Notes: generated from the letters alone by a model not told the origin. A stretch of 64,000 nt of DNA from Hormiphora californensis (GCA_020137815.1 CM035351.1:2790001-2854000); one strand, 5' to 3'; shown: positions 1 through 56,650, counted from the stretch's first letter. Numbers and translations: made by a program.

Positions 1-18364
<18,364 letters not shown>

Positions 18365-25300: not shown

Positions 25301-27261
25301 CTCGACTTTGTGCTTATTGTATCATTCACGGTGTTGTACAAAAGTGCAGTTTCTCGGTAGAGGATTAACCCCCAGTTCTCCATCGCTCCAGCACTAAAAT
25401 CAGGCACCGCCACAGAATCTGCGGGAAATATTTCATTAATCATTATCGGAGTACCATGGTGAACTAAATAATAACAGGGTGTGTGTGTGTATAAACAAGC
25501 CAAAATTGTAGTTTTGATAAACTAACCAATCTTCCTGAGAGGGAAATCCGTCCCATAAAACTCCTCGTATTTATCAATCACTTTCCGTGTGATATCTGCA
25601 GAGTAAACCCCATCACCAGCATCAATAGCAGGACCTCGACCACACGTCCTAACTTTAACATTAGTATTCGTTTGTTGGACCTCAGTACATTTAAAGTCAG
25701 CGATAACAAAAGCCAGAAGATATGTTGACATTTTGACGCTCTTTTCAAATGAGAATGTCCTGTAAGTATCGTCCACTGAGACAGGGTCTCCCTTTTGAGG
25801 CATGTTCCAAAGCACCAGAGGGTACTTTTTCTCTGTGGTAATGGTCATCTTGAAGACGGCTTTCATGTCAGGTTCATCAAAACAGGGCATAACTTTGCGG
25901 GCGGCAAGTGGCTCCATTTGAGACGCCAACAACCACCTGAGAGGAAGATTATGGAATTGGAAAATATAGATATCTTTCAGGTTCCTAATATATTCGGATA
26001 ATAACTTCAGATCTTACTTTTTCTCTCCGTTTTCTTTGTAGGAGCTCAGGTAGATTCCATCCAGACCCTCCACCAGCCGGGACCTCCACTCTAGAGTTAG
26101 GAAGTACCTGCCTGGCTCTAGGGTGGAGCCCAGTTGCATCACATAGAAACTATTAGCAGTGAACGGGTAGGCATGGGTCACTTTCACATGTTCCCTATCT
26201 TCAGGCTTACCCTGTGGAGAAGGGTTTGTTAAATTCTCAAATTTAACTCTTATTAAATACCTCACTTCAAGATTATCAGCAGGAACCGACCGAAACAAGT
26301 AAACAACCAATCAGAACTCGTTATTTAGGTCATGTGACTGGTTATCAGCCAATCAGGCACCAGTATTTCCTGATTTGGTCGGTTCCTGATTCTCAGATTC
26401 AAAATTCAAATATAATGTAATCACTCCCTCTACCCATTCTCACAGTATAAGCCTGCTCCAACTACAAAAAGTTTACTCTATTAGTCCTACCTTACTCACT
26501 GTATTGCTCCTTCTTACCTTGCCATCCCGTTGTACAGTGCAACTAGTAACGTTCATCTCATACCCCTGTAGTTTGTGTCGAACATTGTTCATGTGCATTA
26601 TGATGGAAGATGTCTTGTTCACTACATCCACTGATATCGTCTCTCTGCCTGGTGAAGCGGGGACGGGGTTCGTGCCTTGTTGTAAATAATTGGAGATATT
26701 GGAGAATTGAAATTAGACATGATAGTAGTCGGTGTAAAAGATGGTTTGGGTGACTGATACTGGTAAAGTAAGAACATTTCAGAAGGCGTTCTAGTGAGGG
26801 TCTAGTTGAAAGAAGAGTCACCCCGCCCCTATAATACACTGTCCCTATACCTAACCTGTAAACAACTGGTCAGTGATGGATATTTTCAGGGAAACGTCAT
26901 ACTCCACTGGTATCACATTCCGAGGTAAGCGGATATCTTCCCAGTTTTGTTGGGGCTCAGGCTTTTCAGCGCTCACCGAGGAACCTGAATCAAGGGGGGG
27001 GGGGGGGGGAATAAACAAACAAACAAACGGAGAAACAAACAGAGAAACAAACAAACGGAGAAACAAACAGAGAAACAAACAGAGAAACAAGCAGACAAAC
27101 AAACAGAGAGACAAGCAGACAAACAAACAAACAAAGTGCTACTTACTGACTGTTGCGATGACAACTATTGATATGATAGCTGAGACCACCAGTAACGCTA
27201 AAATGATCCGCTTTGTGTCCCGGTTAAGGGATCCCCATTTCTCCCTCGCGCTCTCTAACAT
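19321..27261 (-). CDS. M1 family zinc aminopeptidase (aminopeptidase N/A-like), type II membrane protein
   Basis: [67 protein letters not shown]; N-terminal [22 protein letters not shown]. Exons: 27261-27147, 26984-26856, 26648-26518, 26211-26018, 25936-25527, 25418-25264, 25162-25049, 24940-24818, 23311-23168, 22973-22789, 22449-22370, 22028-21874, 21739-21414, 21230-21138, 20325-20131, 20025-19882, 19678-19594, 19458-19321. Confidence 0.95.
20452..21114. mobile_element. Non-autonomous element with asymmetric inverted repeats and a multi-hairpin end (Helentron-like or foldback)
   Basis: TTATATACCCTGCT (20641) / AGCAGGGTATATAA (21101-21114); nested hairpins ATAAACTCTTGCCA..TGGCAAGAGTTTAT, AGTTTATCCGCCA-C-TGGCGGATAAACT, CCGAGGCGTAGCCGAGG. 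Confidence 0.6.
22523..22655 (-). mobile_element. Miniature non-autonomous Helitron
   Basis: Minus strand reads A|TCTCTATTATAATA (5' segment duplicated) ... CCACCCGGCGAAGCCGGGTGG hairpin ... GCGCACCCAATGGGTGCG-CTAG|T. Confidence 0.6.
23387..24755. mobile_element. Non-autonomous hAT element
   Basis: TIR CAGGAAGCGACCGAA / TTCGGTCGTTTCCTG; perfect 8-bp TSD GTTTAGTC (23379-23386, 24756-24763); (TTCGG)n subterminal arrays; internal direct and inverted duplications. Confidence 0.9.
26280..26388. mobile_element. 109-bp hAT MITE related to the 23387 element
   Basis: TIR CAGGAACCGACC / GGTCGGTTCCTG; TSD ATTATCAG / ATTCTCAG (1 mismatch). Confidence 0.85.
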
Positions 27262-32193: not shown

Positions 32194-35100
32194 ATGTGGC
32201 GGGTCTACCTGTTTGTGCTAATTGCCGGTCATCATTGTATCACCCACGTTAAATGCCACGCCAACAACTGCAATATAACTGAAATTGGTCCCTTTCTTGC
32301 TGACTCATGCTCGGAAAAAAATGCCACAGGATATACAACTTTCCGATGCCATAACTCAAACGTCACTTTTGATGCCTACTCGAGATTTTCCTTTGCACGG
32401 CGCAACCGGTATACCCTTGTTACTAGACTTTGTCCGGATGACTCAGCTGTCTACCAAGCCTGTGTTGTCAAATACCTATTTGATGATTTATGGTGGGGTT
32501 TTGATAAAAATTACAAGGCCCAGCTATTTGATTCTCGACCTGTGTGTGGTCGTTTGTGTTGGAATGATGTGTATCGTGACTACCTGTATACAGTTGACCA
32601 ACACTGTCCAGGGGATGAAGAGAAACAAAAATTTACCTACACCCTGCCTCGGTCTCCACAGGACACATTCCCTATCCGGCCCAGTCTTGTGTGTGACGGG
32701 AAGTGTGATTATTGGGAGACTAGTTGGTTTTGTGTTGATGAGTTGGATTGTAATGGATTGTCATATGGCGTCGTTATTCCTGGATTTGGGATATTTCCCC
32801 AATCTGTCCATGTCATTGGAGATCCTAGCCATATACCCGAGATCAGAAACTTAACATTTGAGGGAACTTGTGAATCAAATGAAATTTCTGTAGAGTATCC
32901 GTTAAGCAACCAAACCCGATGTTTTTATTTGCGCAAACATGCAGTGCTAGGCATAAGTTACTCATACCCATACTGCATCAACGGTCATGATCAGACCAAC
33001 TGCTCCTATTCCGGGTTTGTAGCGGGACATGCAAGGTCGATGGATTCCCCACAACCATTTCGACCCACATGTTATGTGCGAAAGATATGCCAATCGTGTG
33101 CGATAACAAATTGGATGGGGAGTGTGTTACCACTGACCGTCATTGCCGCCTTCACAAACACCGACTCTGTGATGGTCACAGTGACTGTAGTTCAGATGCG
33201 GATGAGAAACGTGGCGTGTGTACAGGCACTAAGAGGAAGTGTAAACGGATAATGACTCAGGTTACAGCTATGCTTCCCATTCCCTCCAATTGGGTCCAAG
33301 ATGGCGTAGTTGATTGTGTAGGAGGAGAGGACGAGGACTTCACCAGCTGGGAGAGGTGTGGAACAGGATTTACAAACAGAGTCCAGAAAGATGGGAATTG
33401 TAAAGATGTCTTCTTGTGTCGACCGGAGGAAGAATTAAAGTTTTTGGAACTGGAAGACGTTTGCTCGATTACTACCTCTGCTTGCGGAGGAAAAGTGTGC
33501 GGAATCTCAAACCAAGCAGTGAAACGTTCAGGCTTGACTGAAACAGTTGAGGGCGACAAGCGGATCATACGTAGTGGATGGTGCAACAAAGGATTGGAAA
33601 CCTTTAGACAACTGATAGGTGACAAATGTGATGAAATGGATTTCACACATCCATTTCATAAGTTTTTTGGGAAAACTCAGACCACTCAATTGATTCTCTC
33701 GACAGTCCAACAATTTGTCGCTACTTCTATGGTAACCAGTACGTCTACCAAAGTTGCAGTGGCCAGTGCCGTAACGGAAAGTGTCCCTTGGAAAAACCAA
33801 TCTTGCATTCGTCTTGTGAAAATATTGAGAATGTTCGGTATTCCATTGGCCAACCTGGTGTCACTGTGGTAAAAAAGGACAGACACGGCTATCACAACAA
33901 CTTCTTTGCCTGTAATACTAACCTTTGTATACCATTATCCAAGGTTTGTGACTTGGTTAACGACTGTGGGGATGGATCGGACGAAGAGATTTGCGAAAAT
34001 AGCGTAAAATGCCAAGGAAGTAGTAAATACATTGTAATAAGTCAAATGTGCGATGGGGCAATTGACTGTCCTGATTTGTCGGACGAATGCAACAGTGTTT
34101 GTCATCGGAAGTCTATCGAGTACACTGGATTTATGGTTTGTGCAGTGGTGATGGGTATAGTCGGGACAGTGTTGAGTAGCGCCCACATCTTCAAAAGTCT
34201 CTTCTTTGATGAACCCTCCAAGACGGATGGTTTATTTGTCAGTAAAGTATTGTCCAACCTCATCGCTCTTGGTGACCTACTCACATCATTGTACCTACTG
34301 ATTCTGGTTGCATTTAACTGGGCTCATCAAAATAGTTTCTGTGAAAAGCACTAGCTTGGGTCAGCAGCTGGTCCTGTCAGTTCATCGGTATCATAAGTAC
34401 AACAGGCACCACCATCACGTCTCTCTCCATGGCAGTTGTCAGCCTGTTCAAACTCCAAGGAACCACACGTGGACTTAGATACCGGAGGTCCAATGATATC
34501 AGTCAGAACTTTAAGAAAAAAGTCTTTGTAATGGTGGGTGCTATAATTTTTATAGCAGTCGGTTTTGCCGTTGCCCCAATTATTTCCAGCTTTGAGGATG
34601 GTTTCGTAAATGGGCTTACGTACGAAGGTGCCAATCAGCTTTTCCTGGAGTGATGACAAAAGAGAAGCTCCTGGCGATTATCCAGGGATACCATGGCACT
34701 AGGATGATCACCAGATCTGAAACTGGCCTCTCCTGGGCGAGAATCCGGAGTATTGTGAGCAGTATGTTCACTAAAGATAACGGAGGAGTACAGCACAGGA
34801 ACCTGTCCTTCTATGGAAATGATCCAGTTTGTTTGTTCAAGTTCTTTGTCCTTCCAGATGATCCTCAGGTGACCTTCGTGTGGCTTTACATTTCCCTACA
34901 ATTCGTCTGTTTCCTAACTGTAGCTGTTTGTCACACTGTCATTGGGGTTCTGGTAGCACGGAGCAAACCACCTGAGGGCAGTAATCTTGCTTCGAAGCTT
35001 AACCAGAAAATTGTGTTAGTTTGTGCCACCGATTTCTGCTGCTGGATGCCGTTTCTGATTTGTTGTGCCCTCCACACGACAGAGGTAGTTGATATGTCAC

Positions 35101-35261
35101 CGTGGTACCAGGTTTTCTCCCTCACCATTCTGCCCATCAATTCCGTTATTAACCCACTGCTCTACAACATCGAATGCTTCACTGCTGCCCTGGATTTCTG
35201 TAAGAAAAGGTTCAGGATACGATTCCAAGTGGAACCAGCTATCCCAGCTAATGACAACTAA
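32194..35261 (+). pseudogene. Intronless LDLa-repeat rhodopsin-class GPCR (GRL101/LGR-like), disrupted
   Basis: Signal peptide; LDLa motifs (CDGHSDCSSDADE, CDLVNDCGDGSDE, CDGAIDCPDLSDEC); 7TM motifs NLIALGDLL, TDFCCWMPF, LPINSVINPLLY. Lesions: 1-nt deletions at ~33027, ~33698 and ~34645, and an in-frame TAG at 34352-34354. Confidence 0.85.
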
Positions 35262-35809
35262 AGCCAATTATCAAACTGACAGACGAGTGTTCTTTCGTGA
35301 CTGTTATTATAACATTTCATATGCTGTTTGCAGGAGCGTAAAAAGCTGATTCTAAGTTTAAGTTTTGTTAAAGTGAGAGAGAACAGCAGGGATTTTCACA
35401 AAAAGTTATCTGGATACGGCTTAACTGTCCTTAACTGTCCCTAGCTGTGTTGATTGCCTTCGATATTTTTCACTATAGCCCTGGATACTCCGGCTACTTA
35501 CTGAGAACAAGAATTATTATTATATATGTTTCATAATGCTGTGTTTCCCTGCCAACGAATACTCCAACTGATCACTGATAAACGATGAGATCTGGTAAGC
35601 GCCGCTCATAGTCACACCAGACGATACCGTGCAATGTGATCTGATCGTCGTGCGCCAACGCCTAATTACAATGTTATGTGACATGTTTGGTGAAGATGTG
35701 CAGAACAGGTGCATCCTCTCGGTCCGTCTGCAAGAACTTTTCGGTGAAGTGTCAGCGGTTGGAGTGTATGCCGTTTATGAGATTGAGTGTATAGGAGTGT
35801 GAGCGAGTA

Positions 35810-43024: not shown

Positions 43025-43594
43025 TTACCCTTTTCCAGTCCACTCTACAATTTCCTGAATCTGTGGGCCAATATCCCGCCCATCATTGTTCAAAACTCGA
43101 TCATGACTGAAACTGTCCAACCCACACTCTGAAGTAACGTTATCCACCCCCTCTGTCCAGACCCAGCCCCGCTGGGACCTCACATCCAACCCAGCCTCAA
43201 CTCTTACAGTCAGTATAGGGACGGTGGGATGGTATGTCTCCAGGAACCACTTTATATCACTTTCCCTTCTGGTGTCAGTAACAAGCCAGACCTGGCCCTG
43301 GGGAGCAGCTTCACATGCTAGCCTACAGTAATGTCCTGGGTCCTTAGACCTCCGATCTTCCCCAAGAGCTATCATTTCCTGACGATACAGCTCCTTGTAG
43401 GGCCCATCAGTTAAAAGTTCCTTGTAATTCACACCTTTTAGCTCAGCGTATTCCTTCTTTATCGCGTTGGAAAGCCGCAGAGTGGAACATTTTCCGGTAC
43501 CAAGAGCCTTCTCGATCTCCCCAGCAGCAAAGTCTTTACCGCTTTTCCTTTTCCCACTGAGAAGAATAATGGAGGAAGGAAGTGGAAGTGTCAT
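43025..43594 (-). CDS. PMVK: Phosphomevalonate kinase (animal type), single exon
   Basis: SGKRKSGKDF, LRLSNAIKKEYA, LLTDGPYKELYR, DPGHYCR, VTDTRRESDIKWF, RGWVWTEGVDNVTSECGLD; ATG at 43594, downstream of an AG acceptor at 43615-43616. Confidence 0.95.
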   Translation of the reverse strand: MTLPLPSSIILLSGKRKSGKDFAAGEIEKALGTGKCSTLRLSNAIKKEYAELKGVNYKELLTDGPYKELYRQEMIALGEDRRSKDPGHYCRLACEAAPQGQVWLVTDTRRESDIKWFLETYHPTVPILTVRVEAGLDVRSQRGWVWTEGVDNVTSECGLDSFSHDRVLNNDGRDIGPQIQEIVEWTGKG

Positions 43595-43745
43595 GATCAC
43601 CAACCAGTCATTTTCTGAATTGAAAGGGGTTAAACGATGCTGTTATAATCAAATCTTTAAACCCAACCCCAACCCAACAAACGCACATAAAACACGAAAG
43701 TAAAACAGTGATAATAAGTTAAAATATAAAAAGTAAAATGTTCGA

Positions 43746-45614
43746 TCAGTCAATCTCGTGCCGAGTTTCTTCGCTTGGTGGAGTCTCTGAGCTTGGTTGA
43801 GTCTCTGAGCTAAGTTGAATCTCTGAGCTAAGTTGAGTTTCTAAATCTGCAGATGTTGGAGTTTCGGTGCTAAGTGGAGTCTCTGGATTTGATGGAGCTT
43901 CTGTATTTGGAGGGTCTCTCCTAAAATGCATGACCACCTCAAACTTCCGTGTATGTGGAAACATATCTACACTAACGGCCTTGACAAACTTGAATGGATC
44001 GCCCAGGAACTTGTTGGAGGTAGGTCCACAGAGTGCCACAATGTTATCCTTTATCTGAGTCACATCACAGCTCACATATACCAGCTCAGATATCATCTCG
44101 GTCTTCCGGAGACATGCAATCACCTCACTGTGTAGACCACTCCGGGGAGGATCAACTATCGCCACAATCCGACCTTTCTGGGGTATCCTTTTAACCGCTT
44201 TCGTTGTCATATGCTTAGCATTTCCCGCCAAAAATGTCACGTTACTCACACCGTTCCGCTCTGCGTTTTTAATTGCATCCTTCACGGCACTCTCGACAAT
44301 CTCAATACCATAAACATGTTTCACAGCGTGAGAGAGTATTAGACCGATAGTTCCAGTTCCACAACACACATCCATCAGATATGTATCCTTGTCAAGAGAT
44401 GCAAAGTCCCGGATGGTATTGTATAACACCTCCGCAGCAGCGGTGTTAACCTGGAAGAAAGATCCGGATGTGATTTGGAACTCCAGTCCGCACAACTTCT
44501 CCAGCATAGTTAGGGGTCCAGCCAGATGGAATATCTGTTCTTTCCCACCCACCAGTTTCAGGAACAGCGAAAAGGATTCCCTGCTCTTGTAGTACTCCTT
44601 CATCAGTTCCTTCACCTCACCCAGTCCAACTTCAGTTAGCTGCCTTTTATCGACAATTGCAGTGACCATGACATGACCCCCACTGTTGGTCCGTACCTCC
44701 AGTGCCTTCCATACACCAGTATTAGCGAGGGTGTCATAGGGAGGGAACTTGGAACCCTCGACCATGATTTTGAACGTTTTAACCTCAGCCAACATCTCAA
44801 CTGAACAGGTTTCCACGCACTCGCTCGCATCCTCCACAGATATGTTCCCCTGGGAAAATTGTCCCCGGACATACCCCACACAACAAAGATCACTCCTGTC
44901 AGCATTTGCACCCACGGTGAACTCACACTTGTTACGGTATCCTAGCAACGTAGGTGATGGTTTTATTTCTGTGAGCGCAAAATCCGGTCCTGCGAAATTT
45001 TTTCCACTCCAAGCGTATTTGACTGCACCAGTAAACTTGTCGAAGATGTCTTGTATTTCCAACGTTTTCAACTTCAGCTGTCCAGGGTATGGTGATTCGT
45101 AAAGAGGGGCCGTCTTCTCCCGGACTGGCACCGCCTCAACTGCACTCTGATTGGATCGCTGTTGTTTTACCAGTGGATTTTCATCAGCCGCTGCTTCTGA
45201 GGCCTTCAGTTTCCCTTTCTTCCACGTCAACTCATTTATAATGTTGATGGCGTTAAACCGCTCTTCATTATTCCTGAAGGTTACATAAGCAACAGCCCGC
45301 TTAAAGGGACGTTTAATCTTTACAATCTGAACATTGTTTCTTGTCAGGAACTTCCTCACTTCATTAGCGGTGGAGTATTTGGGAATGTTGAGGATTTGGA
45401 TCTTGAATATCTCAGAGGTAAAATTGTCAGTTGTTATCAGGGATTGTGAGTTGTCAGGCTGATTTTCTGTGGTGGGTACTGGTGGCTGAATTTCAGTGGG
45501 CTTTAGAGGTGCCTGGATATCGGGATCGCATTGAACATCCCTCACCACATCATCAGATTGATCTGCGGGTGTGCTAATTTCTATCCTGGGTCGTTTTACC
45601 TCTGGTTCTGCCAT
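43746..45614 (-). CDS. TRMT2A: tRNA (uracil-5-)-methyltransferase homologue A, single exon
   Basis: N-terminal RRM (SEIFKIQILNIP, AYVTFRN), GYRNKCEF, SFFQVN, DVCCGTGTIG, AIVDPPRSGL, VYVSC, VDMFPHT. Confidence 0.95.
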   Translation of the reverse strand: MAEPEVKRPRIEISTPADQSDDVVRDVQCDPDIQAPLKPTEIQPPVPTTENQPDNSQSLITTDNFTSEIFKIQILNIPKYSTANEVRKFLTRNNVQIVKIKRPFKRAVAYVTFRNNEERFNAINIINELTWKKGKLKASEAAADENPLVKQQRSNQSAVEAVPVREKTAPLYESPYPGQLKLKTLEIQDIFDKFTGAVKYAWSGKNFAGPDFALTEIKPSPTLLGYRNKCEFTVGANADRSDLCCVGYVRGQFSQGNISVEDASECVETCSVEMLAEVKTFKIMVEGSKFPPYDTLANTGVWKALEVRTNSGGHVMVTAIVDKRQLTEVGLGEVKELMKEYYKSRESFSLFLKLVGGKEQIFHLAGPLTMLEKLCGLEFQITSGSFFQVNTAAAEVLYNTIRDFASLDKDTYLMDVCCGTGTIGLILSHAVKHVYGIEIVESAVKDAIKNAERNGVSNVTFLAGNAKHMTTKAVKRIPQKGRIVAIVDPPRSGLHSEVIACLRKTEMISELVYVSCDVTQIKDNIVALCGPTSNKFLGDPFKFVKAVSVDMFPHTRKFEVVMHFRRDPPNTEAPSNPETPLSTETPTSADLETQLSSEIQLSSETQPSSETPPSEETRHEID

Positions 45615-45686
45615 CGTACTAGTGGGGCATTATCTGAGGTTAAAATATACACAAATATAAAACTCAGGCAAATAAAACGAACATTC

Positions 45687-45727
45687 TTTCAAACTTTTCA
45701 ACACTACTTTAAACAAATTAATTTGAG
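45687..45727 (+). other. Ctenophore spliced-leader exon sequence at the LINE 5' end (copy 1)
   Basis: TTTCAAACTTTTCAACACTACTTTAAACAAATTAATTTGAG, identical to 50575-50615; matches the ctenophore SL as I recall it. Confidence 0.85.
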
Positions 45728-45748: not shown

Positions 45749-47062
45749 ATGATTTCAGAAGATATGTCCTCTACAAATACAACTGAGGAACAACTGCGGA
45801 TAATCTCGGAGCTGGTAGCTGAAGCGGATACCCCTGTCAAGGAGGTGCTCCAAGCCTATGATCCTGAGTTAACCTATGAGGAGATGCTACCGAAGATCGA
45901 AACACTCCCTGTAAGTGACCTAGAGGCTACTGCAGCTTTCCTCGGACAAGAGGTGACATGTGTGACTGGAGCGAAAAAATACCACTCAGAGAGAACACTG
46001 TCAGACTGGATTATCATGAGGACTGAGGCTCTCTTTCCCCAAACATGTAGAGAGTGTAGTGAATCCTATACGGTGAAAAGGACTGATACACCCCCCGTTC
46101 GGTGTAACTATTGCGATGCTGGACTTCACAACTGTGCGGCTATCCGTGCTGAAGCTGGGAACACAACCAACACAAGGAGCCGAATATGGATGTGCAACGA
46201 CTGTGTCTCAAAACATACTATTGAGAGGTTCAACAGTCACCTACCTGAGGGAGGTCCTCCAAACCCTACTCTTAATTCAACTCGACGCAGTTCAAATAGA
46301 GAGGTATTGGACAGAAGGACCAGTCAGCCTGCTGGCGGACGGAACGATCTTGCTGGCAGAAGGAATAATGGCCCACCTACCGGTGGAGATACAGGGTCGG
46401 ACACGGAGGTTTGTAAATTCTACCTGCAGAGGAGATGCCGACACGGCAAAAACGGAACCGCCAGGGTTGGAAACAGAACCTGCCCAAAAGCCCACCCCAC
46501 CCTGTGTAAAAAGTTCTGTAACTATGGAACCATGAGGAGATTTGGATGTAATACTGAAAATTGCAACCTATTTCATCCTCCCCTCTGTAAGAACTCAGAG
46601 TTACGTCACCAGTGCTTCAAACAAAACTGCATGAAGCAACATCTAAAAGATACTCAGCGGAGCCCGCCTTTTAGAGTTGATGAAGCACCCCGGAACACTG
46701 GTTTAAATGCTCGCAATGATCGTGACAGAAACCAATCCTCTCGGAGCAGGGGTGCAAACCAAGCACCTCCAAATGAACCAGGAATCTGGTCGTCTGAGCC
46801 AACTAGGGATAGGATACCAAGCAGATCCCAATGGCCTCAGGATCAGAACAGGGGCACGAGGCCTGACCCAGACCCGGCTTTTTTAGACGCCATCATCGAC
46901 CGTCTCAGGGACTCTATAGCCGGGATAGTGAGGATGGAAATGAGGAATCGCCCGGAGCGGGAGCCCGACCAACAGCACTACAGCTCCCAGCCGACCCAAC
47001 TCCCTCCAGGAATGGGCAACACATACAGTCCTCATCATCAGAGGGACAGACGGTCTTACTAA
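45749..47062 (+). CDS. LINE ORF1 (PHD-like Cys cluster plus CCCH-type zinc fingers)
   Basis: CRECSE..CNYC..HNC..WMCNDC; CKFYLQRRCRHG..CPKAHP..CKKF..C..FHPPLC; homologous to 50660-51958. Confidence 0.85.
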   Translation: MISEDMSSTNTTEEQLRIISELVAEADTPVKEVLQAYDPELTYEEMLPKIETLPVSDLEATAAFLGQEVTCVTGAKKYHSERTLSDWIIMRTEALFPQTCRECSESYTVKRTDTPPVRCNYCDAGLHNCAAIRAEAGNTTNTRSRIWMCNDCVSKHTIERFNSHLPEGGPPNPTLNSTRRSSNREVLDRRTSQPAGGRNDLAGRRNNGPPTGGDTGSDTEVCKFYLQRRCRHGKNGTARVGNRTCPKAHPTLCKKFCNYGTMRRFGCNTENCNLFHPPLCKNSELRHQCFKQNCMKQHLKDTQRSPPFRVDEAPRNTGLNARNDRDRNQSSRSRGANQAPPNEPGIWSSEPTRDRIPSRSQWPQDQNRGTRPDPDPAFLDAIIDRLRDSIAGIVRMEMRNRPEREPDQQHYSSQPTQLPPGMGNTYSPHHQRDRRSY

Positions 47063-50000
47063 ATACAGCAGGACCCTCAGTTCCCAGTAATCTCTCAAAA
47101 CTGTTGCTTCTAAACGCCCGTAGCCTGAACCCGTCTGCGGGCAGTGAGGCAAGGTTCAAACTGGAGAACTTGAAGGACACCATTATGAACTCAAATATTC
47201 CTGTCATGGCTGCAGCCATCACGGAAACTTGGTGGCGGGCAGAATACTCGGACGCACAGGTTAATATTCCTGGTTTTTCTGTCATCCGCAGCGATCGGGA
47301 AGGTAGGGTTGGGGGTGGCTGTGCCCTCTATCTCCACTCGTCGGTGACCCCTTCCGATCAGATCACATTTTGGGGGGGGGCCTGCCGCAAGAATCTCATG
47401 CCTCATTGGCGATTTTCAGGGTAGCTGGGATTTTTGAGATTTTCGATTTTTGGCTAAAAAACGTGGGATTTTTGAGATTTTTGAGGCAAATTTGCGATTT
47501 TTCGGGGGGAAACCGCAAATTTTTCTCAAAAATCTCATAGAAAGGAAAAATTTCGATTCGAAAATTTGGAATAGAAACAATCCTTGTGTTTTTTTACCGA
47601 AAATCAAAATTCTGAATAGAAATTTTCCTTGTGTTCTAGTACAAAAGTTAATGTGAAGCTAAAACATGAAATCTACCTATTTAAATTACTAAACTGATAT
47701 TATGATTCAGTTTTAAGTTAAAAAATATGTCAAAAAACTGAGTATTGGCGGCCAAAATTGTGCCAATTTACCACAAAAATCTCAAAAATCTCAAACGTAA
47801 TTGAGCAAATTTTCCCAAAAATCTCAAAAATCTCATCGGCCGAAAAGAGGGTAGCTGAGATTTTTGCGGCAGGCCCCCCCCCCATTTTCAGATGAAAGCA
47901 ACAGTGTTGTGGCGGTATACATTCCAAACATGAACTGTATTATCTCGTCAGTTTACAGGGCTCCCACAGTGCCTGTGAACCTAGTTCTTGGGATTTTGGA
48001 GGAATTTATCCCGCGTCACTCGTGTGAAGATTGTCCTCCAGATGTGTTTACGCTTGGTGACTTTAACATGCCTCAGGTAAACTGGACATCAGTATCAGCG
48101 GATCAGGGAAATGCTCTGGTTGACTTTGCTGAGAGAAATTTCCTTACCCAGTTGGTTACAGAGCCTACTAGAGGACGGAACATTTTAGACATTGTACTTA
48201 CAAACAGGGTGGATTATGTTTTTGACACCGATGTATCAGCCACCCAGATGTCGGACCACTCCATGGTGTCTTGTGTCCTCGGAATCGGGATCCACCAGTC
48301 CAAAACAGAACGTGCAGCAGCTGGAAGAGGATTCAAGGCCCTTGACTACCACAACGCAGATTTTACTGCTGCAGGAGAGGAGCTGAGCAGTATTGATTGG
48401 GACACACTCCTATCCTCTTGTATTTCAGACGATGATGGGCACTCAATTGTGCAGTGTATCAGAGAGAAGATACTAGAGGTATTTGAAAAACACAGCAAGA
48501 GAAAGAGGTTTGGTACCCAGAGAAAGAGAGATCCCTACCTGAGAAGACTGAAAAGGAGGCAGAAAAAGCTGAACTCTCGGATGAAACTGGCCAAGCAGAG
48601 ATGCTCACACCAGTCCCTCATCGATAAACTCGAACGCAAGATAGACAAGACAGCCGATAAGATTAAGGCGTACTTGTTAGGCCTGCTGGAAGTAAAGGAG
48701 AGGAAAGCCATTGACACTATCAAATCAAATTCACGGTTTTTCTGGTCCTTTGTCAACAAGCACCGAAAAATCAAATCGAGTGTGGCTCCACTCCTGAGAC
48801 CTGATGGTACAGTGACTGATGACCCTCTGGAAAAGTCAAATATTCTCCAGTCGCAATATGTAGGAGTATTCAGTGATCCGTCCATGTGCTCGGTTGAGGA
48901 GGCTATCAAGGACATTCCTTCTACGACCTGCACGCTAGATGAACTTGACTTCACCCCTGGTTGTATTGAAGCTGCACTGGCTGAATTGGACCCCTACGCT
49001 GGAGCACCTTCAGATGACATACCTGCGGTTATACTATCAAAGTGCCGGAAACAGCTAGCATACCCACTTTGGTTGCTCTGGAACCGTTCATTCACTGAGG
49101 GTGTTGTACCAGGTTGTCTCAAACGGCAACAGGTGACCCCAATTTTCAAAAAGGGTTCAAAGATGGAGGCTAAAAACTATCGCCCTGTTGCCCTCACATC
49201 CCATATGATAAAAACTTTTGAAAGGGTTGTGAGGAACAAAGTTGTGGATCACCTGGAGGGAAATGGAATCTTCAATGATGGTCAGCACGGCTTTCGGAGA
49301 AATAGGAGTTGTCTGACCCAACTTTTGAACCACTATGACAACATCATGCGTGAACTGAATAACGGTCTGGAAGTGGATGTTGTTTATTTGGATATGGAGA
49401 AGGCGTTCGATAAAGTCGATATCAAGGTTGGATAAGTGACTTTCTTTCAGCTAGAATACAGACAGTAGTGGTGGATGGAGTTCAGTCTCGGCCGGAACTC
49501 GTCATTAGTGGAGTCCCCCAGGGCACTGTTCTTGGCCCGCTTCTGTTCTTGGTTTATATGATAGACATTGAATCACTTCTTGCTGGAACAGTCCTAACTT
49601 TTGCAGATGACTCCAAGCTGTGGAAAGCGATCAGGTCACTCAACGACAGAGATAACCTGCAGCTGAGTCTTAATGAATTTGGACGTTGGGCTTCAGACAA
49701 CAATATGTCACTCCATCAGGATAAGTTTGAGGTGATAAATTATACACTTCGCTCCACCCAACTCCTGAGGGAGCTTCCTTTCTCCACTGACAATTATCTT
49801 TACAATGGTCCCGGAGGCGAGACAATATCACCAAGTTTCACTGTGAGAGATCTAGGGGTCCTTGTATCTGCAGACTGCACTTGGTCAGAACACATAGGCA
49901 GCATTACTGCCAAGGCTAGACGCATGAGTGGCTGGGCACTTAGTGTATTTCGGGATAGATCCGATGATACTATGCTAACGTTACTGAAGTCCATCATTAG

Positions 50001-50541
50001 GCCTCAGGTGGAGTACTGTTGTCCATTATGGAGCCCGGTGAAAAAGTCTGATATCGCCCTGGTTGAAGAGGCTCAAAGACACTTCACACGTAGGATTGAG
50101 AGCTGTTCCGGCATGGGGTACTGGGATCGGCTCCAACATCTTGGTATCTTGTCCCTCCAGCGGCGTCGTGAGCGATACATGATTATCCATGTCTGGAAGG
50201 TTCTTCATGAGGTAGTTCCAAACGGCACGGGTCTCCTGTTTACTGAGCACACCCGTCTTGGTACCAGAGCATTGGTCCCCCGTTACAATTACCTCGCTCA
50301 AAAATCCATATCTGGCCCTTATGACTCATCATTCGGTGTTAGAGGAGCACAGTTGTGGAATTCCCTACCCCGTGCAGTGAGAGAGGCAACATCACTGCTC
50401 GAGTTGAAACAGTCCCTTGGGTCCTACTTAACCACCATCCCCGACCAGCCACCTGTCCGCGGTTACCGGGTGGAGCACAGTAACTCCTTAATTGATTGGA
50501 GAAATGACCCCAGTGTGTTTAAAGAGATGGGCGAATCATAG
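47063..50541 (+). pseudogene. LINE ORF2 (APE endonuclease plus RT), disrupted
   Basis: LNARSL, ITETW, LGDFN, SDH, NYRPVALTS, QHGFR, SGVPQG, FADD; broken by the MITE at 47372-47882 and a ~49-nt deletion at ~49427 relative to the inner copy. Confidence 0.92.
47372..47882. mobile_element. MITE with G-run/C-run termini inserted in the LINE endonuclease
   Basis: G9-CCTGCCGCAAGAATCTC / GAGATTTTTGCGGCAGG-C-run; duplicated CATTTT (CACATTTT / CCCATTTT); removal restores Q-I-T-F-S-D. Confidence 0.9.
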
Positions 50542-50574
50542 AAATGTGTTTTGCTTTTCATTGTCATTTGGCTG

Positions 50575-50615
50575 TTTCAAACTTTTCAACACTACTTTAA
50601 ACAAATTAATTTGAG
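50575..50615 (+). other. Ctenophore spliced-leader exon sequence at the LINE 5' end (copy 2)
   Basis: 41/41 identical to 45687-45727. Confidence 0.85.
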
Positions 50616-50659
50616 GCGCGCGCCCGTGCGTTTTCAAATATTCCACTGTAGTGTCTAGT

Positions 50660-51958
50660 ATGGCAATGGACCATGCTAATGACACAGATCCAGCCGTCTT
50701 TGCTGCTGTACTCTCTGAGCTGAAAGAGGATGCCAGAACACCGGTTAAGGAGGTTATTGAAGTTTATGACCCTTCTCTGGACTATGAGGAAAACCTCAGC
50801 AAACTGGAGGCTATCCCAGCTAGTAATCTGGAGGCAACTGCTATCTTCCTTGGCCAAGAGGTTAGATGTGTGGCGTCTGGAGTGCAGAAATACCATTCAG
50901 TAACAACCCTGGCTGACTGGATCATCATGCGGATAGAGGGATTTGGTCCCCAAACATGCAGCGAGTGTACCGAAAAGTATTCCGTGAAGAGAAATGAAAA
51001 TCCCCCTGCTCGGTGCTTCATCTGTGGTGGCGGTCTGCACAACTGTGCTAAGATACGAGAAGAGGCCAGCAGCACTGCTATCAAAAGCCGAATTTGGGTG
51101 TGCTCCCCTTGCCTCGGTAAACAAACTCTGGAAAGGTTTACTAGCCATCTACCTGACGGTGGTCCAGATCCTAGTCATAACTCGACCAGACGTAGTTCAA
51201 ACCGAGAGCAGATCCTGGGAAGGCACATCAGCAGAACTGCAGAGGAACGAGAGGACCTACCGGACCCAGCGGAACAGGGAGAGAGGGTTGTTCCCGGAAA
51301 CGAAGTGTGTAGGTTTTATTTGCAAAGGAGGTGCAGACACGGGAGAGATGGGACGAAGCTAGTTAGTGGCAGATCTTGTCCCAAATCTCACCCTACACTG
51401 TGCAAAAAGTTTTGCAACTATGGATCTATGAGGAGCGTTGGATGCCAGAACACTGAATGTAACTTTTTCCATCCTCCACTATGTAAGAATTCTGAGTTAC
51501 GGCACCAGTGTTATAAACTCAGCTGTACCAAACATCACTTGAGGGACACCCTGAGGACTAGGCCTGGAGAAGGAACATCACGTGGGACTGGAAATGAGAG
51601 GAACCGCCGTGAAAGAATCCCTTCAGCCCAATCACGAACCACAGGTCAAAACCAAGCACCTGATGCAGGACCTTGGTCAAGTGAACCCAGTAGGGCGAGG
51701 GTGTCGAGTGGAGTCCAATGGTCCCAGTCTCAGAATCAGAGACCTGGACCAGATGCTGCTTTTTTAGAGGCAGTCCTCGATCGGCTGAGGGACTCAATAG
51801 CCGGGATAGTGAGAACAGAGATGAGGAATCGTCCAGAGCCAGAACCAGTTCTACTTCCAGACCAGTTATACTCCCAACACACCCAACCGGCTCAACTGCC
51901 GGCAGGAACAGGTTACACCTTCAGCCCTCATCAGCAGAGGGGGAGACGGTCGTATTAG
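50660..51958 (+). CDS. LINE ORF1
   Basis: Same Cys/His pattern as copy 1; ends RRSY*. Confidence 0.87.
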   Translation: MAMDHANDTDPAVFAAVLSELKEDARTPVKEVIEVYDPSLDYEENLSKLEAIPASNLEATAIFLGQEVRCVASGVQKYHSVTTLADWIIMRIEGFGPQTCSECTEKYSVKRNENPPARCFICGGGLHNCAKIREEASSTAIKSRIWVCSPCLGKQTLERFTSHLPDGGPDPSHNSTRRSSNREQILGRHISRTAEEREDLPDPAEQGERVVPGNEVCRFYLQRRCRHGRDGTKLVSGRSCPKSHPTLCKKFCNYGSMRSVGCQNTECNFFHPPLCKNSELRHQCYKLSCTKHHLRDTLRTRPGEGTSRGTGNERNRRERIPSAQSRTTGQNQAPDAGPWSSEPSRARVSSGVQWSQSQNQRPGPDAAFLEAVLDRLRDSIAGIVRTEMRNRPEPEPVLLPDQLYSQHTQPAQLPAGTGYTFSPHQQRGRRSY

Positions 51959-51999
51959 CTTCCGAGAAACCCTCAGTTCCCAGCAACCTTTCCAAACTT

Positions 52000-54958
52000 A
52001 TGCTGCTAAATGCTCGCAGTCTAAACCCGAGTGCTAAGTAGCGAAACAAGGTACAAGCTGGAGAATCTTAAAGACACTATTTGCAACTCTGATATTCCTG
52101 CCATGGCCGTAGCCATTACTGAAACTTGGTGGCGGGCTGAATTTTCAGATGCCCAGGTGGGTATCCCCGGTTATTCTATTATACGCAGTGATCGGGACGG
52201 CAGGGTGGGGGGTGGCTGTGCCCTATATCTTCATTCATCCTTGTCCCCCTCTGATCAGGTTGCTTTCTCAGATAACTGTAATAGTGTCGTTGCAGTCTAC
52301 ATTCCTAACTCAAACTTCGTTATTGCAACAGTTTACAGGGCCCCCACATCAAACCCACTCCAAGTCATCGGAATCCTGGAGGAGTTTATTCAACGCCATT
52401 CCTCCGGTGATTGTCCGCCTGAGGTTTTTGTGCTAGGTGACTTCAATATGCCCCATGTAAACTGGTCAAATCTTCCAACCGACCAGAGTAACTCCCTGGT
52501 TGAATTTGCTGAGAAAAATTTTCTTACCCAACTAGTGACGGAGCCCACGAGAGGTAAGAGTATCTTGGACATTGTTCTTACGAATAGAGTGGACTATGTC
52601 CTCGACATGGATGTAACGGCGACCCAAATGTCTGACCACGCTCTCGTTTCTTGCATTCTGGGAGTTGGGCTGAAACAGGCTAAGTCAGACTGCAAACGAG
52701 CTGCTAGAGGGTTCAAGGCACTTGATTACCACAATGCTGACTTCACCGGGGCACGTGAGGAGCTAGACGCTATCAACTGGGACGAACACTTAGCTCCATA
52801 TGACATGGAAGATGGCGGCCACGCCTATGTCCAATGTATTACAGAGATTGTTCTAGGCGTGTTCGAAAAGCATTCTAAACGGAAGGTTTTTAGCAATTTA
52901 AAGAAGAGGGATCCCTATCTGAAACGATTGAAAAGGAGGCAGAAAAAGTTGAACTCCCGGCTAAAACTTGCTAGGGAGAGATGTTCCTACCAGTCCCTGA
53001 TTGATAAGCTTAACCGTAAAATTGAGAAGACTGGTGATAGGATAAAGGTTCACCTCCTTGGGCTTCTGGAAGGAAGAGAGAGAAAGGCTATTGACACTAT
53101 CAAATGTAATCCACGGTTTTTCTGGTCATTTGTGAACAAGCATCGGAAAATCAAGTCTAGTGTGGCCCCACTCCTAAGACCTGATGGCACAGTTACCGAT
53201 GATCCCCTGGAGAAATCAAACATTCTTCAGTCACAGTATGTGGGGGTATTCAGCGATCCTGCTAAGTGTTCGGCCGAGGAGGCTACTAAGGATATTCCTT
53301 CTACGACCATCACACTGGACAATCTTGACTTTACTCCCGGCTGTATTGAGGATGCATTGGCTGAGTTAGATCCTTACGCTGGAGCACCACCAGGGGACAT
53401 ACCAGCGGTTATACTGTCCAAGTGCCGGAAACAGTTGGCATACCCCTTATGGTTACTTTGGGATTGTTCTTTCCATGAGGGTGTCGTACCAACATGCCTT
53501 AAACGCCAATATATAACACCCGTGTTTAAGAAAGGATCCAAAATGGAGGCAAAAAATTATCGGCCTGTCGCACTCACCTCCCACATGATTAAAACATTTG
53601 AGAGAGTTGTAAGAAACAAAGTTGTCGATCATCTGGAGGGAAATGGGCTCTTCAACGATGGCCAGCATGGTTTCCGGAGGAACAGAAGCTGCTTGACTCA
53701 ACTCTTAAACCACTACGATAATGTCATGAGAGAACTGAATAACGGACACGAAGTGGATGTTGTGTATTTAGACATGGAGAAGGCTTTTGACAAAGTCGAT
53801 GTCAAGGTCTTGATGGCAAAATTGGAAAAATACGGTATTCGGGGACAGCTACACCGTTGGATCAACAACTTCCTTTCAGAAAGAGTACAAACAGTGATGG
53901 TAGATGGTGCTCAGTCTCGGGAGGAATTGGTCATCAGTGGTGTCCCACAGGGTACAGTTATTGGTCCCTTGTTGTTTTTAGTCTATATGATAGACATAGA
54001 GACACTTCTTTCTGGCACAGTCCTCACCTTCGCAGACGATTCCAAGCTGTGGAAGGCAATCAAGTCATTGGATGATAGAGAGGATCTCCAGAAAAGTCTA
54101 GCTGTGTTTGCTCGTTGGGCGACAGATAACAACATGTCCCTACACCAGGACAAATTTGAAGTTATGAACTATACTCTTCGCTCCACCCAACTGTTAAGAG
54201 AGCTGCCATTCTCCAATGAAAACTACTCCTACAGTGGGCCTGGAGGCGAAACGATATCCCCTAGCGAATCTGTCAAAGACCTAGGAGTCCTTGTTTCAAC
54301 AAACTGTGCATGGTCGGAGCATATCGGCAGCATCACGACTAAGGCTCGTCGGATGAGTGGCTGGGCACTTAGTGTGTTTCGGGATAGATCGGATGACACC
54401 ATGCTAACCCTACTCAAATCCATCGTCAGACCCCAGGTTGAATACTGTTGCCCCCTATGGAACCCTGTCAAAAAGTCAGATATTGCACTGGTTGAGGAGG
54501 CACAGAGACAATTCACCCGCAGGATCGCGAGTTGTTCGGGCATGAATTACTGGGACAGACTCCATCACCTCAAAATCCTGTCCCTTCAACGGCGCCGAGA
54601 ACGATATATAATTATCCACGTCTGGAAGGTCTTGCATAAGGTAGTACCAAACAGTACGAGTCTCTTGTTTACAGAGCACCCACGCCTTGGCACCAGAGCG
54701 GTAATCCCTCGGTATAACTACTTGGCCCAAAAATCCATCTCTGGCCCCTATGACTCATCATTCGGCGTAAAAGGAGCTCAGTTATGGAATGCAGTGCCTC
54801 GGGTAGTGAGATCTTCAGCTTCCCTACTCGAGCTAAAGCAGTCGCTCGGTAAATATCTGTCCACCATCCCTGACCAGCCACCGGTTCGTGGGTATAGTGT
54901 TCAGCACAGTAACTCCCTGTTGGATTGGAGAAACGATCCGAGTGTTTTCAGAGAGTAA
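52000..54958 (+). CDS. LINE ORF2 (APE plus RT) with one apparent 1-nt insertion at ~52037
   Basis: MLLNARSLNPSA then a frame change to SSETRYKLE; the 975-codon ORF that follows is intact with FADD, YCCPLW and LSLQRRRERY. Confidence 0.92.
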
Positions 54959-55317
54959 ATCATTCAGGGGTGTTTTGCTTTTCTATGTTGTTTGGCTGCC
55001 CACTAAAACCCGATTCCTTTTGGTGTCTGAGTGTTAGCTCTTTTTGAGCTGAAACTTTGTGTACAATGCTTAATTTATTTATGAATGTTTATGAATGTTT
55101 ATAACCTGCTGACTTTCCATGTCATCTGAGTGTTGGCTCCTTTTGAGCTAAAGCTTTGTGTACAATACTAAATTTATTTACGAATGTTTACGAATGTTTT
55201 ACGAATGTAAAAAGTAACCAATAAACAAATCTATTTACATAAATGTAGTTATTTCACAAACAAAAATAAATGGTTGAGATTGTACAAAACTATCTTTTAG
55301 TAAACCTTGTAATGTTT

Positions 55318-55869
55318 CTACAAGGTTCCTTTCTGTAGTGCCACGATTTTTCTCTTTTTCGCATTTAATAGTTCGACACACCGTCCCAACAGATCCCTCT
55401 GAATGTTGTTACATTCAACAACTCGATCACTGAGCACTGCTTCAAGATCCGCTTTGGATTTTTGGCAATCATTCAAACTGTCTTCAGTCTCCCGAAGAGC
55501 GGTTGAATTTTCTGAATTTTCAATGAGCATTCGATTTATAAGGGCTGTTGCTGCAGACAAGGTAAACTCCTGAGACGGTATCAAAGTGAACTCAGCCCAG
55601 GTTATAGAGGATGAATCATCTTCAATTTCTTCGCTGAATGTAAGTGTTTGTTCGGCACATGACCATGAAAACTCAGAGTCAGTTGAACGGATTTTACCCC
55701 ATAGTTCATCCAGTGAAGTACCCGTTAAGAATGGAGATGTTGCTTCTAATTTGCCCTCATGTTTTTCACCGTTGATATATCTCTCCACTATAATACTGTC
55801 TCCCTTCAACTGTAAAACGACGGGCTCGCCAGATTTCGTTTGTTTAACTATGTAACCACTGAGATCCAT
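55318..55869 (-). CDS. XRCC4: XRCC4-like NHEJ protein, single exon, short
   Basis: Beta-rich head, coiled coil and the ligase-IV-binding-like motif DLLGRCVELLNAKKRKI. Confidence 0.72.
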   Translation of the reverse strand: MDLSGYIVKQTKSGEPVVLQLKGDSIIVERYINGEKHEGKLEATSPFLTGTSLDELWGKIRSTDSEFSWSCAEQTLTFSEEIEDDSSSITWAEFTLIPSQEFTLSAATALINRMLIENSENSTALRETEDSLNDCQKSKADLEAVLSDRVVECNNIQRDLLGRCVELLNAKKRKIVALQKGTL

Positions 55870-56650
55870 AGCCTGGAAATATGAAATATTTTAGTCTGAG
55901 GAGATTAGATAAAGTTTGTTTGAAGGAACTACCGACAACGTGGAATTGAAATATTAAATAGGAGTCGGCACCGGGCACTCTGGTCACAGCAGACTTGCCA
56001 GATTTAGTTTAAATTTGGTTATTTTTCTTTTTAACATTTCAAGTGTGTTCTCAGCTTACTTTGGGAAACATCTCAGCCCATTAACAACGCTAAATTTGGT
56101 TTATTTTGATTTTGGAGACTCCGTAGTAGTTTTTCAAAAAGTGACGATCGGTTTTTCAAAATTTTTAATTTTTATTTATTTGGAAAATTCAAATTCAAAA
56201 TTTACATAAACAACGAAATTCGCGCGGCTTTATATTTGCGCGTTAATCTCGCGCGTTACATCGACTTCATTAAATTTGACTCAATTATTGTAATTGACTG
56301 TTGGAAAACAGGGTAGTGAGTCGCCAGACAGATCAAATGAAATAAAATCTATACACTTCTTTCATTAATTGGAAAAATTATTTACACCAATTTCAAATCT
56401 GTACAGTTACATCTGTAAAATACTTCAGTCCTTCACGTACAGCCACTGCCACTGCCAGAGGTCTGAGTCCTGAGAGTCTCACACTCAACTGTCTCACTCG
56501 AGACTCTCAGTCACTGAGAGACTCACTCACACTGAGATTGAGTCTCTATCTTAACTTACATATGTATTTACAACTGCAGTTACAAAATACTGTTCCACTA
56601 ACCACTTTGTTGAGTTTATTCAGCAAGTTCCACTGTTCATGTTTCCATCC

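Follow-up and report, generated by a model that had tools for sequence, protein, structure and literature searches.

Two diverged CR1-like non-LTR elements of Hormiphora californensis, lying head to tail in the 64,000-nt stretch of DNA analysed here (the window, GCA_020137815.1 CM035351.1:2790001-2854000), probably express their second open reading frame by a programmed -1 frameshift on the slippery heptamer U_UUU_UUA, which would yield an ORF1-ORF2 fusion protein. The original prediction, made from this one sequence, had already proposed such a fusion; as a prediction, it now gains support from the heptamer itself, its reading phase, the open overlap that follows it and a constraint that extends across the ORF1 family. 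The coordinates of all features are collected in Table 1.

Table 1. Features of the two elements, with positions counted from the first nucleotide of the window.
Feature	Positions	Strand	Remark
Copy 1 5' end, 41 nt = nt 4-44 of the ctenophore spliced leader	45687..45727	+	Leader as given in the accessible text of PMC8527503
Copy 1 ORF1, 437 aa	45749..47062	+	Pfam matches weak
Copy 1 heptamer T_TTT_TTA	46879..46885	+	
Copy 1 stop-free -1 frame, heptamer to endonuclease motif, no ATG	46879..47109	+	61 codons overlap ORF1
Copy 1 ORF2, APE endonuclease and RT, broken	47110..50541	+	
511-nt non-coding MITE-like insertion in copy 1	47372..47882	.	27-nt terminal inverted repeats, ATTTT on either side
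Copy 1 short U-rich 3' UTR	50542..50574	+	Similarity to copy 2 3' end stops at TTTGGCTG
Copy 2 5' end, identical spliced-leader block	50575..50615	+	Abuts copy 1 3' end
Copy 2 ORF1, 432 aa	50660..51958	+	
Copy 2 heptamer T_TTT_TTA	51760..51766	+	Unchanged in all but one contig of four runs
Copy 2 stop-free -1 frame, heptamer to endonuclease motif, one ATG at 52000	51760..52005	+	66 codons overlap ORF1
Copy 2 ORF2, APE and RT	52006..54958	+	
Copy 2 3' UTR, ends in TTTGGCTG	54959..54998	+	

The ORF1 proteins of the two copies are 59-60% identical. In copy 1, ORF1 encodes a Cys-rich PHD-like finger, CCCH-type fingers, a disordered linker and a C-terminal amphipathic segment that starts with F-L. 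Pfam recognized PHD in 4 and zf-CCCH_2 in 8 of 67 ORF1 relatives, every match being weak; ORF1 has an invariant Cys/His pattern. ORF2 matched Exo_endo_phos_2 and RVT_1 above the cut-off, the same Pfam search returned no integrase or protease match in the elements, and there are no LTRs. The copies are APE-type non-LTR retrotransposons. The best solved-structure relatives of ORF2 were L1 ORF2p and R2, both distant (phmmer E 6e-12 to L1), and an avian reverse transcriptase (RT) protein (P0036), which we take to be CR1, aligned with 30% identity over 938 aa (BLAST E 5e-119). The label CR1-like is a provisional one, assigned by BLAST. No ORF1 or ORF2 relatives and no leader match were found among viral contigs.

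Both copies are damaged. The endonuclease of copy 1 is interrupted by the 511-nt inverted-repeat insertion, and its RT has lost 49 nt at 49426/49427. The inverted repeats of the insertion open with a G-run, and it is present in a single copy within the window. Copy 2 has one surplus base near 52035-52037, which shuts the -1 frame right after LNARSLNPSA and cuts motif I off from the remaining ORF2. This base is absent from runs X2 and X5 (one spanning contig per run, one run possibly being the window's own source), so that in the family the -1 frame is unbroken from the heptamer through ORF2.

Both ORF1s contain GCT TTT TTA in the X_XXY_YYZ phase, as originally predicted, and the -1 frame, for which some 75-80 open codons had been claimed, stays open to LNARSL for 77 codons in copy 1 and 82 in copy 2. 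Upstream in ORF1, the same frame is closed by stops at 34 of 377 codons (copy 1) and 32 of 367 (copy 2), compared with none in either overlap, and it opens 4-5 codons before the heptamer in copy 1 and in a metagenomic relative, L001, described below. When the ORF1 protein was held fixed and codons were drawn from each ORF1's own usage (20,000 draws), the probability of an open overlap was 0.011 for copy 1 and 0.008 for copy 2, and that of the canonical heptamer, given A-F-L, 0.03 and 0.02, respectively. TTTTTTA is common in the window (12 occurrences on the plus and 11 on the minus strand), and the weight of the observation therefore rests on the position of the heptamer and its shared context.

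Other parts of the original prediction required revision. Copy 1 indeed has no ATG at the ORF2 start, but the codon aligned with the copy 2 ATG is TTG (47104), not the reported CTG, which lies one codon earlier. The tract after the site had been described as unusually well conserved, which comparison with upstream codons did not bear out: where both copies encode the same residue, 12 of 20 codons after the site are identical, a share not significantly above the 96 of 205 upstream of it (p=0.35). The tract does contain an identical run of 17 nt, but ORF2 has four more of that length and two that are longer. Suppression of synonymous change was likewise absent in the comparison of copy 1 with copy 2.

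Conservation of the heptamer in the family, by contrast, can be traced at the protein level, where the residues it demands are kept in relatives. Among the first 10 ORF1 matches, [AD]-F-[LF] was present in 8, the region being missing in the remaining 2. A profile built from 10 ORF1s matched 2,622 clusters (50% identity), of which the best 150 were examined; removal of 19 truncated or unparsed sequences left 131 at a median identity of ~0.32, a set made up of proteins only, kin to each other and ranked by a profile that contains the slip site. Within this set, Phe occupies the site in 122/131 and F-[LF] in 116/131, and the column entropies at F-[LF] are 0.5 and 0.8 bits, against 2.7-3.9 at neighbouring positions. 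A site of the form U_UUU_UUH needs a preceding codon ending in U, so that E, Q, K, M and W are unable to precede the Phe. Before the site Phe, these five residues were never seen (0 of 122 sequences), whereas they precede 78 of the 245 F-[LF] pairs located elsewhere in these proteins and, at positions -2 to -6, are present in 22-38 of 116 sequences. Nor is the residue preceding the Phe frozen, having changed at least 56 times on a 113-row tree (median identity 0.32). S/D-F-L-E can be read as a helix capping box too, but capping alone does not account for the pattern, as the exclusion persists where the capping-box residue at +2 is lacking (0/48).

In the same set of relatives, the codon after the heptamer starts with G in 81 of 116. 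Potential for -1 stops is 0.031 per codon in the ORF1 tail, taken beyond the helix, vs 0.083 in the upstream linker and is lower in the tail in 113/116; the +1-frame control went in the opposite direction. Moreover, the order of residues in the overlap avoids -1 stops relative to shuffling in blocks of eight (87/116, p=3e-7), an effect not seen in the linker or the N-terminus.

The 15 of 131 sequences without F-[LF] include two kinds worth recording. One group lacks F-L (P0122, P0130, P0143, P0157, P0168), and three of its five members have K-N 2-3 residues upstream, as would suit slippage on A_AAA_AAY instead. In another six (P0070, P0089, P0139, P0149, P0159, P0178), the Phe is followed by neither L nor F and preceded by D throughout, and their D-F would be compatible with a U_UUU site acting in the P site only. 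A naturally fused, longer ORF1 was not found among the relatives, a weak negative result.

DNA of relatives allowed the heptamer to be read directly. A metagenome scan, in which 120 stretches were examined, confirmed two loci, L001 and L002, and a search of genome contigs gave 2 RT fragments only, neither reaching the ORF1-ORF2 junction. The L001 ORF1 is 32% identical and, at the homologous D-F-F, reads T_TTT_TTC in phase; the -1 frame of L001 opens 4 codons before the site and continues without any ATG for 75 codons, as far as LNGRSL (shuffle P 0.011). An in-phase heptamer is present in 3/3 elements with DNA, each followed by a stop-free overlap of 56-66 codons (shuffle P ~0.01 each), and an ATG before endonuclease motif I is missing in two of the three (copy 1 and L001). 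The L001 ORF1 also has a separate 68-codon stop-free -1 run elsewhere. L002 is a 5' ORF1 fragment, in which an array of short TTGGCGCCAA-type palindromic repeats (1-430) precedes the truncated ORF1.

Contigs of four runs were aligned to the copy 2 junction; run X12 gave no cover over the heptamer. From the heptamer to 52005, the contigs list 23 substitutions, none of which, applied singly, makes a -1 stop, and two overlap indels, of 12 and 9 nt, both in frame. One contig breaks the heptamer (51764 T>C, giving TTT CTA), at a depth of 61 of 671 and within a 73-nt match in a 377-nt record, and looks like a decayed fragment. The original prediction had named synonymous changes in the heptamer, or -1 stops before ORF2, in intact relatives as evidence against frameshifting; apart from this low-depth fragment, the relatives examined gave no such evidence, L001 keeping both heptamer and open frame and the contigs adding no -1 stop.

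A stimulatory stem or pseudoknot, usually placed 5-9 nt downstream of such a site and proposed in the original prediction as something to look for, was not recovered as a significant or conserved fold in the three sequences compared; this is where the proposed mechanism is weakest. Fold z-scores for the 60 nt after the site were -0.44, +0.46 and -0.82 in the three elements, the best value being -1.89 for L001 over 90 nt, and the three-way consensus fold reached -5.6 kcal/mol only. For copy 2, though not for copy 1, it is possible to draw a pseudoknot. The idea that the post-site tract pairs with the 3' tip of the element was rejected: among 455 windows in copy 1, those of the tip ranked 169-445, and among 409 in copy 2 they ranked 175-382. 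No Rfam family was matched at the slip site; four sub-threshold miRNA matches all fall within the copy 1 insertion. Given that no conserved 3' stimulator was found, either shifting is probably infrequent, or it is assisted by hairpins peculiar to single elements or by a signal that escaped detection.

In the mechanism we propose, tRNA-Phe and tRNA-Leu or tRNA-Phe would slip in tandem, as at HIV-1 gag-pol. The majority of ribosomes would produce ORF1p of ~430 aa, and a minority, slipping back by one base, a predicted fusion of ~1,430 aa (369 + ~1,063 codons in the geometry of copy 2). Such a fusion would retain the zinc fingers and exchange the C-terminal helix and P/Q-rich tail for a linker of ~80 residues, followed by endonuclease and RT, and the ratio of ORF1p to RT would be set by the shift rate.

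The strongest competing explanation is that ORF2 is made separately, by termination-reinitiation 40-50 nt past the ORF1 stop, at the ATG in copy 2 or a near-cognate TTG or CTG in copy 1 and L001, and that F-L is kept for protein reasons only. A start-like codon does stand in 3/3 elements, 3-4 codons ahead of the Asn of motif I (ATG in copy 2, TTG at or adjoining the same spot in copy 1 and L001), which keeps reinitiation alive as a rival or minor route, and two relatives (P0024 and P0025) carry a Met a short way ahead of motif I. There are also precedents, in the accessible parts of the papers concerned: initiation of L1 ORF2 is described as AUG-independent (PMC5009743), and SART1 uses reinitiation (PMC10275272, PMC3708506). 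We nevertheless regard this explanation as unlikely, because it leaves unexplained the stop-free overlap of 56-66 codons, the rule of U-ending residues before the Phe and the avoidance of -1 stops in the ORF1 tails.

These overlap constraints are predicted equally well by transcriptional slippage, in which the polymerase would add one U within the six-T run, present at 3/3 sites, and place ORF2 in frame in some RNAs. Six T is short for slippage by a cellular polymerase, and the Leu/Phe pattern fits tRNA re-pairing. Furthermore, inserted copies would inherit the extra T, and no insertion within the run is listed in the contigs of the four runs, though contigs drop rare variants. We consider this route highly improbable. 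Least credible of all is splicing, whether by a cis-intron that joins the two frames or by trans-splicing of a leader to an acceptor inside the element, which would yield an mRNA for ORF2 only. The host does trans-splice, its leader is on the elements, and in Mnemiopsis one gene model (P0031) continues from ORF1 into the endonuclease. However, this model leaves out endonuclease motif I and seems to be an artefact of gene prediction, an ORF2-only mRNA would be without an ATG in copy 1 and L001, and splicing gives no reason for the open overlap. The P0031 model has S-F-L at the slip site.

A programmed -1 frameshift, the reading we favour, has its closest functional parallel in HIV-1 gag-pol, whose shift site is U_UUU_UUA according to the accessible text of PMC5009743. 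The two systems share the heptamer and its phase, a structural ORF upstream, an enzyme ORF in a -1 overlap and, usually, a G as the next base; the elements described here differ in being non-LTR with an APE and in having no protease and no conserved 3' stem-loop that we could find. Among non-LTR elements, Dictyostelium TRE5-A and TRE3-A, which are also of the APE-RT type, are stated to need a -1 frameshift for ORF2 translation, with no shift site or assay given in the accessible text (PMC5911963); they belong to another host, have a different ORF1, and tRNA-gene targeting is theirs. Out-of-frame overlap or frameshifting is also described for Drosophila R1B, with ORFs overlapping by 14-59 bp in the -1 frame (PMC2718515, accessible text), and for HeT-A, with a frameshift within gag, but the R1B overlaps are shorter, no heptamer is given for either, and HeT-A lacks RT. 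The frameshifting review from which the HeT-A case is taken names, in its accessible portion, only HeT-A, TART and LINE reinitiation as non-LTR cases (PMC5009743), and +1 shifting or readthrough has been suggested for Paramecium elements (PMC5405496, accessible text). CR1-group elements with a PHD-type (type III) ORF1 (PMC4120745) resemble those studied here in the APE and RT of ORF2 and in the PHD-like finger of ORF1, whereas the latter add CCCH-type fingers, a long -1 overlap and a 5' spliced leader and have no 3' tandem tail; neither 'CCCH' nor 'frameshift' occurs in the accessible text of that paper. We found no report of a conserved slippery site in CR1-like elements in the titles and abstract openings covered by our search, to which Repbase and most subscription journals are external. 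The strategy is rarely described and little documented for the non-LTR class, -1 shifting having already been stated for TRE5-A and TRE3-A; what is new here is the family-wide slip-site signature, together with the spliced-leader 5' end.

The three intact 5' ends all open with the ctenophore spliced leader, from its nt 3 or 4 to nt 44; in L001 this block occupies 353-393. The flanks upstream of the leader are unrelated among the three insertions, so that these are not SL-gene arrays; element sequence follows downstream, with no second relic copy. NeSL, SLACS and CRE insert into SL RNA genes, the NeSL/SLACS type carrying a restriction-like endonuclease. The elements described here do not fit the NeSL/SLACS kind, given their APE-type endonuclease and the three unrelated flanks. 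A GT directly follows the leader in copy 1.

At their 3' ends, which are U-rich, neither copy has a poly(A) or tandem-repeat tail; the 3' ends of vertebrate CR1 are short tandem repeats. There is no spacer between the end of copy 1 and the start of copy 2 (50574/50575), and no target-site duplication is visible outside the pair. Such a junction is compatible with template jumping in the course of reverse transcription and also with an insertion at the leader in which the leader was duplicated.

That both copies and L001 begin with the leader suggests that the life cycle of this animal retrotransposon passes through trans-splicing. A DNA copy of a spliced leader at the 5' end is also known from dinoflagellate retrogenes, which are described as tagged by spliced-leader relics (PMC12014239); here, the host is an animal, the element is autonomous and of the APE type, and a single near-complete leader takes the place of a relic stack. 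We found no report of leader-headed ctenophore retrotransposons in the titles and abstract openings searched, most subscription journals lying outside that search. Of the hundreds of leader copies reported to be scattered over ctenophore genomes, some may stem from leader-headed elements. More speculatively, a large and old CR1-like LINE lineage (2,622 ORF1 clusters) might follow retroviruses in using the HIV heptamer for a gag-pol strategy, with no conserved RNA element to stimulate it, and, in ctenophores, might be promoterless and capped by trans-splicing; the leader's DNA copy, with a U-rich stretch and AG at its end, would then serve as the next acceptor and regenerate the 5' end in each cycle. 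We offer this scenario tentatively and think it somewhat doubtful as a whole.

Translation of LINE ORF2 has been studied mostly in L1 and SART1, for which reinitiation is the preferred model. A defined shift site common to more than 100 divergent relatives makes the frameshift alternative testable by a seven-base mutation. Frameshifting predicts an RT covalently joined to the RNA-binding domains of ORF1, which bears on cis-preference and on RNP stoichiometry. It also bears on annotation: the called start includes motif I in 3 of 20 ORF2 relatives (gene callers may miss earlier starts), and ORF2 annotations in this lineage begin inside the endonuclease and miss motif I in the other 17.

The surroundings of the element pair contain several gene-like features. 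A TRMT2A-like tRNA uracil-5 methyltransferase gene (43746-45626, minus strand; Pfam E 5e-15) stands head to head with the pair, the 5' end of its ORF lying ~60 nt from the copy 1 leader. Next to it, on the same strand, is a 205-aa ORF (43025-43642) with a P-loop-like motif, putatively that of a phosphomevalonate kinase, and beyond copy 2 an ORF at 55321-55890 (minus strand) has a weak match to the XRCC4 coiled coil (E 0.012). Farther away, exons of three gene-like features, assigned by eye only, extend over about 900-16900 (plus), 25500-26000 (minus) and 32200-35300 (plus) and resemble those of a large mosaic extracellular protein that combines lectin-like segments with repeats, a gene of the aminopeptidase-N type and a receptor-like gene rich in cysteine repeats.
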